A stretch of DNA of 11,787 nucleotides, from IMG/VR virus record IMGVR_UViG_648276671_000012, one strand, 5' to 3'. The first letter of the stretch is position 1. Each line of letters starts with the position of its first letter. The stretch comes from a virus (lineage: Duplodnaviria; Heunggongvirae; Uroviricota; Caudoviricetes). Of the stretch, positions 3,835 through 10,869 are shown piece by piece. The notes under the pieces were generated by a model. That model made no database searches and was not told where the DNA came from. It was given only the letters and a program-made list of their open reading frames with translations. The translations under genes were made by a program, and so were the position numbers.

Positions 3835-4007
3835 TCAGATTAAATTAATCTTGACATCATAGCTTTCAAGACCCGTCATTTTTTCCCGTGCGGTAAACTG
3901 AATACTGGTAACTTCTTTCCCGGTCTTTTTCTTAAGTTCAATAATTTTTTTGTTATATATTCAGAAATATCTGCTTCTGCTTTTGTTTTTAAGTCTTCAA
4001 TATTCAT
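3835..4007 (-). pseudogene. gnsB/gnsA-like gene disrupted by -1 frameshift in a homopolymer (A7 on coding strand, T7 on plus strand 3945..3951)
   Basis: Minus-strand translation from ATG 4007 gives MNIEDLKTKAEADISEYITKK and then goes out of frame to a stop at 3878..3876. The -1 frame continues IIELKKKTGKEVTSIQFTAREKMTGLESYDVKINLI to TGA at 3837..3835. Both halves resemble GnsA/GnsB (57 aa) as recalled; one extra A would restore a 57-aa ORF. Confidence 0.6.
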
Positions 4008-4179
4008 CATTTCCTCTTTTAGTCTGTTATGACTTTCCAGTTACACTGGTAAGTCGATTATATGGTGCAAACGTGTAAAAGATAAGATGAAACATCGCAA
4101 TAATCAACATACGATAGTCTAAATTTTACACAAACAGACAAAGAGAATTTTCCTGAATTATCAATGCAATAGCATCAAA

Positions 4180-5255: not shown

Positions 5256-6279
<1,024 letters not shown>

Positions 6280-6283
<4 letters not shown>

Positions 6284-8455: not shown

Positions 8456-9208
8456 TTATCTCGTCACCTTCCTCAATTGCGCTTCCGCGTATGCTTCTTC
8501 CTGCCAGCACTTTGTTACCAGTTTACCAATGACGTCCGCATACCCCTTATACCACTGATAATCGGTCAGGTCTGGTACCAGCTTCTGGACATGACGTCGT
8601 GCCAGCGTGGTCGGTAAACGACTAAACCGGTTTCCATTACAACGCCCACAAATCTTATATACCGGTACGCCATGAAAACGGGTTCTTTTTTCATCCAGAA
8701 CAATCCCTTTACCCTTACACCCTCTGCACGCTGTGCTGACTTCGCCCTTACCATGGCAATGCTGACATAGTTCCTTCACCCATTCTTCCTTGATTACAGA
8801 TTCCCCGCGTCTGTAGTGTTTCACCACTTCGCGCAATACATTATAAAATCCCGTACCTGAACAATGCTCACAGCGAGCCTTACTTGCCGCAGACCTGGAG
8901 TAATCAGCAAAGGCAAAACTCACGAGGTAAGGAATAATCTGTAACCGGATTTCTTCACTCAATTTGTTCAATGTCGGGTTATCCAGTGCCATCGCGTAAT
9001 TTAGCAGGCCTTCAATCGCAAACTGAGGGTCCTGAACACCAACTTTTGCCAGAAATAAGGCCAACCCAAGTGGTGCTTTCGACTGCACCATCCCCTGCGC
9101 TGCCATTACATCCGTAATTGTTAAACAACCGGTGCCTGTCGCTGGAGCGTCATCGCTCAATTTTGGAGATTTTGGGGAGTAATATTTTGGTAAGGCTTCA
9201 AGGTTCAT
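8456..9208 (-). CDS. quuQ: late-gene antitermination protein Q, 250 aa from internal ATG
   Basis: Track ORF 8456..9238 (260 aa); the ATG at 9208..9206 with GGAG SD gives 250 aa. Multiple Cys/His zinc-finger-like motifs ([31 protein letters not shown]). Located upstream of the PR'/tR' module and the lysis genes. Confidence 0.8.
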
Positions 9209-9221
9209 GCTCGTTCTCCAC

Positions 9222-10271
9222 TTACGCCAGTACGCCAATTGCCAGCGCGCGATCGATAAAACGAAATATCAGCTCCAGTTGGGAGCCATACTTCTCTTCA
9301 AATGCCACTGTATCCGTATGCAGCTCGTTGTGATGCTTTCTGCACAAAGGCAACACAAAGAGATCATGTGCTTTTGTTCCCATTCCGCCCTGCCCGTGAC
9401 CAATCAGATGATGCGGATCGTCGGCTGGCATACCGCAGCAAGCACACGGCTGTGTCTTAACCCAACGTGTGTATTTCTCCTTAACCCAGCGGCGACGTTT
9501 AGGCAGCTTCATGAAAGATTCCGGAGACTCTGGATCAACGGTGATGCTTACCACCGTCTTTTCCTGTGGTAGTTTTTGTTGCTGGTGGGCGTAAGGCAAC
9601 GGTGCAAGATTTTTTGTGCGTTGTTTCAATATGCTGGTGGCGGTCTGCTCTCCCGGTACGATGTCGCTCTCGCGGTACACCGAGCAGATTTTTTCCGCTG
9701 GTATTCCCAGCGAACGACGTAATACCGCTTCCGGTAGCGCGTCCGCCACCTGATTGCGGACCGCCCACCAGGATAATTCAGCCAGAGATAATTCACGTTC
9801 CTGCGTACCGCTTATTGCGTGACGGATGACGTCAATCACCCATGCTGTCAGATTTTGTTGAGCAAGCAGATCCAGTGATTCCGATGTCTGGTCACGCAGT
9901 TGGTTGTCGCAGTGCCAACACAACACCATTGCGCCGGTACCATAACGGTGAATGACTGTTTCAGAGTGATGGTAATCGCCATTAGGCCACTGGCAGGATG
10001 TAACATGACGTAATAGCCAGTCAGACAATGCGCCAACGCCGCCAGCAGCACGAATCACCCGTTCGTTACTAAAAAACGGCAGCAATGTTTTGTCTTCCGC
10101 CAGCGGCTGGCGAACGGCAGGAACGACTCCGGATGGCAGATTACGCATGCTTTTTGGTTCCGGTTCCACCAGCACTCGAGGATTATGAAATATCTGTATG
10201 GATTCACGGCCCGGCTTAAGGACCACCAGCCCAAGCTCAGGCACCAGAACAGGTCTAAGTAATACCCGCAC
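9222..10271 (-). CDS. ydfU: DUF968-family protein with C-terminal HNH (His-Me finger) nuclease-like motif (YdfU-like), 349 aa from GTG
   Basis: C-terminal CACCGMPADDPHHLIGHGQGG...HDLFVLPLCRKHHNELH fits a C-x2-C...D-x-HH...N...C-x2-HH-x3-H HNH pattern. A GTG start at 10271..10269, 1 nt after the stop of the upstream 92-aa ORF, gives 349 aa. The track's ATG at 10310 would overlap that ORF by 38 nt. Confidence 0.75.
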   Translation of the reverse strand: MRVLLRPVLVPELGLVVLKPGRESIQIFHNPRVLVEPEPKSMRNLPSGVVPAVRQPLAEDKTLLPFFSNERVIRAAGGVGALSDWLLRHVTSCQWPNGDYHHSETVIHRYGTGAMVLCWHCDNQLRDQTSESLDLLAQQNLTAWVIDVIRHAISGTQERELSLAELSWWAVRNQVADALPEAVLRRSLGIPAEKICSVYRESDIVPGEQTATSILKQRTKNLAPLPYAHQQQKLPQEKTVVSITVDPESPESFMKLPKRRRWVKEKYTRWVKTQPCACCGMPADDPHHLIGHGQGGMGTKAHDLFVLPLCRKHHNELHTDTVAFEEKYGSQLELIFRFIDRALAIGVLA

Positions 10272-10272
10272 G

Positions 10273-10551
10273 TTACCTCCAGATCCGTTGCTGGAAAGTG
10301 CGGGACGCACGTGGTGGGCGTTCGGAGTAAGGCAATCTGACTGAGATTATCCAGTGACGGTAGTCGAGGCTAAGGGCTTTCTTAACCTCGTATCCGCGCC
10401 TGCGGTAACACTGAATTATCCATTCAGCCTGCTCTTCAGTGCATGGAGGGTGTTGGAACCATTCAGACTTGAATGCGTGAGAATACCGCTCGTGCGTGCA
10501 GACAAGAACGGGCGAATTATCAGAATTGTAATATTTTACGTTGCGTGCCAT
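10273..10551 (-). CDS. hypothetical Cys/His-rich small protein (92 aa), translationally coupled to the DUF968/HNH gene
   Basis: ORF whose TAA stop is 1 nt from the GTG start of the ydfU-like gene (TAA-C-GTG). Contains C-T-H, PPC and QCY motifs. Function unknown. Confidence 0.5.
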   Translation of the reverse strand: MARNVKYYNSDNSPVLVCTHERYSHAFKSEWFQHPPCTEEQAEWIIQCYRRRGYEVKKALSLDYRHWIISVRLPYSERPPRASRTFQQRIWR

Positions 10552-10617
10552 CGGTTTTCTCCGGTGGCACGGTGTTACTCAGCGGGAGTTCAGCCCCGCG
10601 CAAGATTGTAGATGAGT

Positions 10618-10869
10618 TTATTCTTCTGCAAAAGCTGAAAAGCCTGCTTTTATTCCGATCTCTTTCAGTGCCTGTAATGAAGTGACAAACTCACCTTCGC
10701 GCAAGATAAATCCGTCCGTGACCCGAGCATCCACAAAATTAATTAACGCAGCCCCATTCTTTCGCAAACACAGAATGCGGTAATGACTAACAATGTTTCC
10801 ATTTTCAACGCACACAGCATAGAGGCCATCTTCACAAAAAATTTTACGCAGTTCTTCGATGTTCATCAT
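10618..10869 (-). CDS. hypothetical protein, 83 aa (Rem-like by position and length)
   Basis: ORF between the hok terminator and the 92-aa ORF. Same length and relative position as Rem of K-12 Qin as recalled; sequence not recognised. Confidence 0.5.
   Translation of the reverse strand: MMNIEELRKIFCEDGLYAVCVENGNIVSHYRILCLRKNGAALINFVDARVTDGFILREGEFVTSLQALKEIGIKAGFSAFAEE

Follow-up and report, generated by a model that had tools for sequence, protein, structure and literature searches.

The 11,787-nucleotide (nt) stretch of the Caudoviricetes record IMGVR_UViG_648276671_000012 analyzed here, which we call the window, is, judging from its identity and gene order, the 11.8-kb lysis-to-early region of Qin, a defective lambdoid prophage of Escherichia coli. 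Our subject is a pair of adjoining genes in it: ydfU, which encodes a 349-amino-acid (aa) DUF968 protein, and the small open reading frame (ORF) directly upstream, orf92. Over the segment 9100-10900, identity is 97.1% to K-12 BW25113 and 99.9% to a clinical strain, and the order of ydfT, ydfU, rem and hokD is shared with the Qin prophage of K-12. The interval forms the promoter-distal end of the Qin nin-type delayed-early operon, in which rem, orf92, ydfU and ydfT, the Q gene, follow one another on the minus strand, hokD and its terminator lying farther upstream (Table 1). Across the same segment of BW25113, PGAP calls ydfT (antiterminator Q), ydfU (DUF968), a "hypothetical protein" and rem, with ydfU annotated as here, from the GTG and at 349 aa. 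An earlier note on this DNA, written from the letters and a list of reading frames, had described a 92-aa ORF joined by TAA-C-GTG to a GTG-started, 349-aa ydfU-like gene in front of Q; its coordinates and frames hold.

Table 1. Features of the orf92-ydfU interval and the flanking genes (window positions)
Feature	Position	Strand	Remarks
orf92, 92 aa	10273..10551	-	ATG start, TAA stop; PHROG 1212; PGAP WP_012304870
orf92 Shine-Dalgarno, GGAG	10559..10562	-	7 nt 5' of ATG 10551-10549; read from sequence
ydfU Shine-Dalgarno, GGAGG	10276..10280	-	from orf92 codons TGG AGG (Trp91 Arg92); 4 nt to GTG
Stop-start junction, TAA-C-GTG	10269..10275	-	orf92 TAA 10275-10273, C 10272, ydfU GTG 10271-10269
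ydfU, 349-aa DUF968 protein	9222..10271	-	stop codon 9222-9224 included
YdfU N-terminal domain, aa 1-195	9687..10271	-	phrog_11007 spans aa 2-133; model
Putative second zinc site in YdfU N-domain	9909..9995	-	C93, H101, C118, C121
YdfU linker, aa 196-260	9492..9686	-	length-variable, low model confidence; alignment and model
YdfU C-terminal HNH / His-Me finger domain, aa 262-349	9225..9488	-	Pfam, alignment, model
ydfT, Q-type antiterminator	8456..9208	-	ATG at 9208, 13 nt past ydfU stop
rem, 83 aa	10618..10869	-	phrog_340; directly upstream of orf92

Across the junction the minus strand reads TGG AGG TAA C GTG; since the final pair of sense codons in orf92 makes GGAGG, ydfU has its ribosome-binding site within the upstream gene. 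We compared this arrangement across about 80 Qin-type loci from IMG/VR together with K-12, O157, Shigella, E. albertii and E. ruysiae. The single-nucleotide spacing between orf92 and ydfU recurs in every Qin-type locus that is neither disrupted nor cut by a contig end, and the string TGG-AGG-TAA-C-GTG is invariant at the Qin-type junctions recovered, the variation upstream of it consisting of synonymous changes. The GTG that yields 349 aa is the correct start, because distant YdfU homologues all begin with the same M-R-(A/V)-L-L and have ATG at the equivalent position; a 362-aa version initiated at an upstream GTG (10310) was rejected, that start being missing in many loci. A stop-start junction with a conserved Shine-Dalgarno sequence within the upstream ORF is the anatomy of translational coupling, and from it we infer that the two genes would actually be coupled. 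Related arrangements occur elsewhere in the family of small proteins to which orf92 belongs: other pairs of a small gene with a DUF968 gene overlap by ATGA or TGATG, and the 3' ends of other family members read TGG-AGG-TGA, TGG-GGG-TGA or TGG-GAG-TAA. In many of them the codons for a C-terminal Trp-Arg or Trp-Gly, TGG-AGG or TGG-GGG, double as the Shine-Dalgarno sequence of the next gene, and Trp91 is retained even where that gene lies 50-80 nt away or the ORF runs past the Trp; the C-terminal Trp of the family seems constrained at the protein and the RNA level both. Tight or overlapping junctions are routine in such operons, the lysis genes of the window itself having ATGA-type 4-nt overlaps at 5750-5753 and 6280-6283.

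A scan for promoters and terminators found no more sites than occur in shuffled sequence. In K-12, one of the strongest Rho-dependent terminators is reported to lie upstream of ydfU, and when Rho is impaired ydfU rises and rem does not (PMC9160355). The orf92 mRNA (10261-10620, minus strand) is C-rich and G-poor, with a C/G ratio of 1.2-2.0, compared with 0.5-0.6 in rem, and the Rho-dependent terminator probably lies in or around orf92. Rho-dependent termination upstream of ydfU fits a nin-type terminator, and it implies that the orf92-ydfU pair is normally silent in the lysogen.

Judged by its conservation, orf92 is a real gene. The ORF keeps 90-92 codons in 88 loci, and in the protein collection proteins of 90-92 residues form 141 clusters (64-97% identity), every one from Escherichia or Shigella. 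A profile search of 1.8 billion representatives found 74 relatives, mostly of 66 aa, which match residues 28-92, and residues 27-92 align with positions 1-66 of PHROG 1212, the full profile (E value 1.8e-35); this small-protein family is confined to enterobacterial temperate phages. Calculated over 24 distinct Qin-type coding sequences, the ratio of nonsynonymous to synonymous substitution (dN/dS) is 0.13 in the core (residues 27-66) and 0.10 in the tail (residues 67-92). The earlier note had staked its reading in part on coding conservation of this ORF, and such purifying selection is what we find; because synonymous differences run throughout the tail, its PPR.SRTFQQRIWR motif is conserved at the protein level. 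Residues 1-26 are a fast-evolving, lineage-specific extension, the Escherichia copies carrying 24-26 extra residues. AlphaFold predicts a beta-alpha-beta-beta core at residues 28-75 with a predicted local distance difference test score (pLDDT) above 90, followed by a tail of low confidence that corresponds to the conserved basic segment at residues 76-92. The isoelectric point (pI) of 9.7 is close to the family median of 9.65, and homologues down to about 30% identity have the same length and the same predicted fold. Only Y49 is invariant across the family, with F32, D63, L73, P74 and W91 nearly so.

The label "Cys/His-rich" that the earlier note gave to orf92 describes this copy only. It has three Cys and four His, of which H34 and C37 alone are invariant within Escherichia and none is conserved family-wide; since these residues lack conservation, orf92 is not a zinc protein. 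Searches of Pfam, NCBIfam, PADLOC and PDB sequences with orf92 gave nothing significant, the sole PDB match being an insignificant one to a CdiI immunity protein (E value 1.3). We consider orf92 probably a nucleic-acid-binding protein. In the curated MG1655 record (NC_000913.3) its place is an empty 346-nt gap (1644305-1644650) between ydfU (b1560) and rem (b1561), and in other assemblies PGAP annotates it as a hypothetical protein under the accession given in Table 1. A conserved and selected gene with relatives in temperate phages, it is yet missing from the MG1655 annotation, to which it should be added. In one genome (P0122) orf92 is fused in frame to YdfU, giving a protein of 438 aa; this is a single-member cluster, and mutation or assembly error is possible.

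The junction invites a reading in which orf92 is a mere translated leader that delivers ribosomes to ydfU and whose peptide is functionless. That the terminal codons form a Shine-Dalgarno sequence in many family members, and that residues 1-26 are unconstrained, would agree with it, but a dN/dS of about 0.1 for residues 27-92 beside freely occurring synonymous changes, a length and predicted fold held to about 30% identity, and a Trp91 kept where no gene adjoins make it highly improbable.

The C-terminal half of YdfU bears the marks of a nuclease. Pfam DUF968 (PF06147) matches residues 160-346 over profile positions 1-171 with 257.8 bits, against a cutoff of 27.8 (E value 6.8e-77), and PHROG 96 ("HNH endonuclease") matches the full length of the protein. 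The His-Me finger that the earlier note had recognized by eye is present as C276ACC...DDPHH(284-288)...C310RKHHNELH318 and is modeled as an HNH fold. Retention of its residues was the other point on which that note's reading had been made to depend, and in an alignment of 40 sequences reaching 46% identity no substitution is seen at C276, C279, D284, D285, H287, H288, C310 and H318, and at least 90% of the sequences keep H314. Position 313 is either His or Cys, which is what a zinc ligand would show. The predicted zinc ligands are C276, C279, C310 and H313, and the candidate catalytic residues H287/H288, H314 and H318; the predicted beta-beta-alpha-metal fold, the conserved catalytic or metal-binding His and the CxxC...CxxC/H zinc site are those of a His-Me finger, and the catalytic His positions align with those of the IscB HNH domain. 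Sub-threshold matches to HNHc_6 and RecA_dep_nuc map to residues 268-328. The AlphaFold model of YdfU has a mean pLDDT of 71.6 and is confident at residues 55-190 and 262-349, which are separated by a disordered linker of variable length (195-260). A Foldseek comparison of this model with the PDB found nothing (best E value 0.56); the best structural match of YdfU is Ref of phage P1, and the HNH domains of Cap5 and McrA are also among the matches. The HNH assignment is not new: DUF968 and DUF1364 (YbcO) were placed in His-Me finger group 7 in 2017, with YdfU named as a member (PMC5714182), and DUF968 proteins of Gram-positive origin have been described as having Orf-like domains fused to HNH (PMC4118853). 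The gene itself is listed among the remaining uncharacterized genes of K-12 (PMC11551758).

Variants of YdfU turn up among the contigs. In several it is fused to Q in proteins of 584-607 aa (P0123-P0125, P0314, P0318, P0319, P0375), each a single-member cluster that may reflect mutation or assembly error. Others of 393-526 aa (P0121, P0127, P0210, P0307) contain internal tandem duplications of 40-200 residues in the linker and HNH region or in the N-domain, which may be real rearrangements or assembly artefacts.

The N-terminal 250 residues or so, in which the earlier note could name no motif, are less featureless than it supposed: DUF968 already begins at residue 160, and a Cys/His cluster occupies residues 93-123. 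The confidently modeled part, residues 55-190, consists of helices and a beta-hairpin/helix. Within the cluster, C93, H101, C118 and C121 are conserved and are followed by the invariant D122 and N123; H101 is replaced by Cys in P1 PdcB and in a Vibrio phage homologue, and C121 by His in three homologues. Such His-Cys swaps are the pattern of metal ligands and suggest a second zinc site, and the model places C118 and C121 where the beta-hairpin 105-118 meets the helix 119-125. The element looks like a second treble-clef or HNH-like module, a resemblance that we leave as a lead. An origin of the N-domain by internal duplication of the HNH domain was also considered; the alignment made by eye is recovered by hhalign, with an E value of 0.12, and the duplication is not established.

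Among characterized proteins, two HNH nucleases stand nearest to YdfU. Gp16 of the Staphylococcus phage PhiNM1 is a RecA-binding nickase stimulated by RecA; C148, C181 and H184 serve it as zinc residues and H157, H185 and H189 as catalytic ones, it has a NinB-like N-domain, both of its termini are needed for RecA binding, and it is toxic on expression (PMC12817073, 2026). It belongs to Pfam HNHc_6 and also scores above the DUF968 threshold. An hhalign comparison aligns Gp16 with YdfU residues 267-329 at 95.5% probability (E value 1.5e-8, 37% identity over 63 columns); the residues essential to Gp16 correspond to YdfU C279, C310, H313, H288, H314 and H318, and both proteins have the pattern CxxC...H...CR(K/E)HH..(L/Q)H. 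Each, moreover, is encoded in the early region of its phage, where a RusA gene lies a few kilobases from it. The two differ in that Gp16, from a Gram-positive siphovirus, has 223 aa and a NinB/Orf-like N-domain, whereas YdfU has 349 aa, an unrelated Cys/His N-domain and a long linker. The other neighbor, P1 Ref (PDB 3plw), is an HNH endonuclease dependent on RecA, with a disordered basic N-terminus in place of a folded domain. By similarity of the HNH core, then, both of the nearest characterized relatives of YdfU are RecA-dependent nucleases.

Other comparisons bear on position and architecture. YbcO (DUF1364; PDB 3g27), a nin-region protein of DLP12 and phage 82, is a single domain of 96 aa. 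Lambda Rap (NinG), a branch-specific endonuclease, occupies the same nin-region position before Q as YdfU; no sequence relationship between the two was detected, the Pfam search giving no NinG match. The P1 protein PdcB is a full-length homologue comprising the N-domain as well as DUF968 (hmmsearch E value 3.6e-45; Pfam DUF968 E value 3.6e-50) that keeps the zinc cysteines, has Gln and Glu at the positions of H314 and H318, and reads GAHIT for DDPHH; with these substitutions, its nuclease function may be lost or altered. Its gene (L163 2905-3948) lies between phd-doc and lpa. The 66-aa PdcA encoded upstream of it was considered as a relative of orf92 and rejected, since it has no hidden Markov model match at an E value of 10 or below and falls in a different PHROG.

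We lean, with slightly better than even confidence, towards a reading in which YdfU is a zinc-stabilized HNH nickase or endonuclease acting on recombination or replication intermediates, with its synthesis coupled to that of orf92, and orf92 is a separate nin-region protein. In such a scheme orf92 would be a small basic alpha/beta protein whose TGG AGG codons double as the ydfU Shine-Dalgarno sequence; with the GTG one base past the TAA, these shared codons would tie YdfU synthesis to ribosomes finishing orf92, and the weak GTG start and 4-nt spacing suggest a low, coupled expression of YdfU limited by orf92 translation. YdfU would combine an N-domain of no recognized fold, carrying a probable structural zinc site, with a flexible linker and the zinc-stabilized HNH domain, and the N-domain would presumably recognize the substrate or a partner. 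We posit that YdfU nicks or cleaves D-loops or branched DNA in lytic growth, beside RusA and Orf-type functions. We infer the nuclease activity, this substrate and any involvement of RecA from the RecA-acting nickases Gp16 and Ref and from the company that ydfU genes keep, traveling with RusA, Orf/NinB-like and NinG-type genes before Q. This gives YdfU a concrete hypothesis: an HNH nickase, dependent on zinc, with kinship to two RecA-dependent phage nucleases.

Several observations weigh against this reading. Only 63-76 residues, all in the HNH core, carry the likeness of YdfU to Ref and Gp16. YdfU falls short of the cutoffs of the families to which a RecA-dependent nuclease might be assigned, with 18.4 bits against 26.9 for RecA_dep_nuc (PF16786) and 25.8 against 26.6 for HNHc_6 (PF16784), and it lacks a NinB/Orf-like N-domain; its own N-domain has no recognizable relative in Pfam, PDB-sequence and fold searches. 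The first 26 codons of orf92 show no visible constraint (dN/dS of about 1.5, on few substitutions). Given the Rho terminator (PMC9160355), a resting lysogen may neither transcribe through this stretch nor translate it. Finally, the roles proposed for YdfU and orf92 rest on sequences and predicted structures.

The kinship with Gp16 could be carried further: YdfU would then be a host-takeover effector that binds RecA, nicks host DNA and arrests host replication in favor of lytic growth. The homology of the HNH domains and the structural match to the RecA-dependent Ref speak for such a role, as does the silencing of ydfU by Rho together with toxic prophage genes (PMC9160355). RecA binding by Gp16, however, needs both termini, and its NinB-like N-domain is missing from YdfU (PMC12817073); moreover, ydfU is not immediate-early but lies late in the early operon, beside RusA-type resolvases. 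We regard takeover as unlikely, though worth bearing in mind.

Genomic position likewise bears on two further roles. A terminase-associated HNH protein serving cos cleavage or packaging, like gp74 of HK97, would agree with the fold and with the cos or lambdoid nature of Qin-type phages. Such proteins are small and encoded beside the terminase, whereas YdfU has 349 aa and its gene stands immediately before Q in every homologous locus inspected; the idea, which the earlier note had itself set aside on the ground of the position upstream of Q, is barely credible. That note had also listed inter-phage conflict among the candidate roles. A nuclease borne on a prophage, with the HNH domains of Cap5 and McrA among its structural matches, might be an anti-phage or inter-phage weapon carried as a moron, but there is no PADLOC match, the moron-typical combination of promoter and terminator was not seen, and the gene's place in the early operon is syntenically conserved among plaque-forming phages (mEp460, mEp390, cdtI and Stx phages), all of which leaves this role very doubtful.

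Whether orf92 and ydfU form a module is best judged from their neighbors. The small gene directly precedes a DUF968 gene in Qin-type prophages, a Klebsiella phage and two IMG/VR loci; it precedes RusA at 59 IMG/VR loci, NinG in Gifsy-2, GF-2 and others, several IMG/VR loci included, YbcO in mEp237 and phiES15, and an RNase T-type exonuclease fused to Lar in N15, whose "orf QD1" matches the PHROG 1212 profile (E value 1.2e-16). In PY54 the order is reversed, the small gene coming after the exonuclease gene, and in three phages the small gene is followed by NinX, a 75-aa protein of unknown function or a cytosine methylase, NinG coming a few genes later. Conversely, the YdfU homologues of mEp460/cdtI, mEp390, YeP3, yong2, the Vibrio phage Her and P1 have no small gene upstream; KilA-N, RusA or unrelated genes take its place in mEp460, mEp390, YeP3, yong2, Her and P1. 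A YdfU relative is present in 209 records of the phage collection and a member of the small family in 61, and matching identity bands suggest that about 20 Qin-type records are the only consistently paired set; a single scan of genome contigs with YdfU returned nine loci, all Escherichia or Shigella-type. In O157 prophages, mEp460, mEp390, YeP3 and yong2, the genes for YdfU homologues adjoin RusA and come directly before Q.

The pair is thus a module within one lineage only, and a dedicated two-gene module is not supported. Of the co-translated unit that the earlier note had proposed, the coupling anatomy stands; the pairing is not specific, since the small gene also precedes other nucleases and many YdfU homologues do without it. 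The simplest reading is a conserved gene order in a mosaic nin region, in which the small gene fills the slot before a nuclease slot and its 3' end is kept as the ribosome-binding site for whichever gene follows.

The same survey bears on the proposal that the two form a nuclease-inhibitor pair, in which orf92 would neutralize YdfU and the coupling would ensure that the inhibitor is made first. A small gene upstream across a tightly coupled junction, the toxicity of the related Gp16 on expression (PMC12817073) and the in-frame orf92::ydfU fusion in P0122 are what such a pair might produce. The obligate co-occurrence expected of nuclease-immunity or toxin-antitoxin partners is, however, absent from orf92 and YdfU: members of the small family also stand directly before four unrelated nuclease families and some non-nucleases, and many YdfU homologues have no small gene. 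Neither PADLOC nor toxin-antitoxin matches were found, the CdiI match being insignificant (E value 1.3), and we judge the proposal improbable.

A bolder reading holds that PHROG 1212 proteins are portable accessory factors for phage nucleases. Their basic Trp tail would bind DNA or a host replication-recombination protein and would recruit or restrain the nuclease encoded next (DUF968, YbcO, NinG, RusA or a DnaQ-like exonuclease), their 3' end would serve as a ready ribosome-binding site for swapping nucleases, and the YdfU N-domain would, in parallel, be a second, degenerate His-Me or treble-clef module. We think this rather unlikely and retain as our preferred reading a YdfU nuclease whose synthesis would be coupled to orf92, a separate protein. 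The recurrence of the small family directly before five unrelated families of nucleases offers a minor hint, reusable when nin regions are annotated, and the possible second metal site in YdfU is a further point of value. The arrangement is an ordinary one for a lambdoid early operon and leaves the view of phage biology unchanged.

Smaller observations accompany the survey. In O157 prophages (L002 5629-7327) the order is small gene, YdfU, RusA and a DUF1133 protein, and in two other loci (L105 and L143) the same three genes are shuffled to small gene, RusA and YdfU; YdfU occurs together with RusA, not in its stead. Rem-like genes precede the PHROG 1212 gene in distant loci as well, and an 81-aa protein matching phrog_1813 and phrog_340 precedes the 66-aa homologue at 52 distant IMG/VR loci, so that the Rem-like gene and the small gene may be a conserved pair of their own. 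Elsewhere in the window, a GnsA/GnsB-like ORF (3876-4010, minus strand) has just 44 aa, compared with the 174 nt (57 aa) of gnsB in BW25113, and this copy may be truncated or frameshifted in the present strain.

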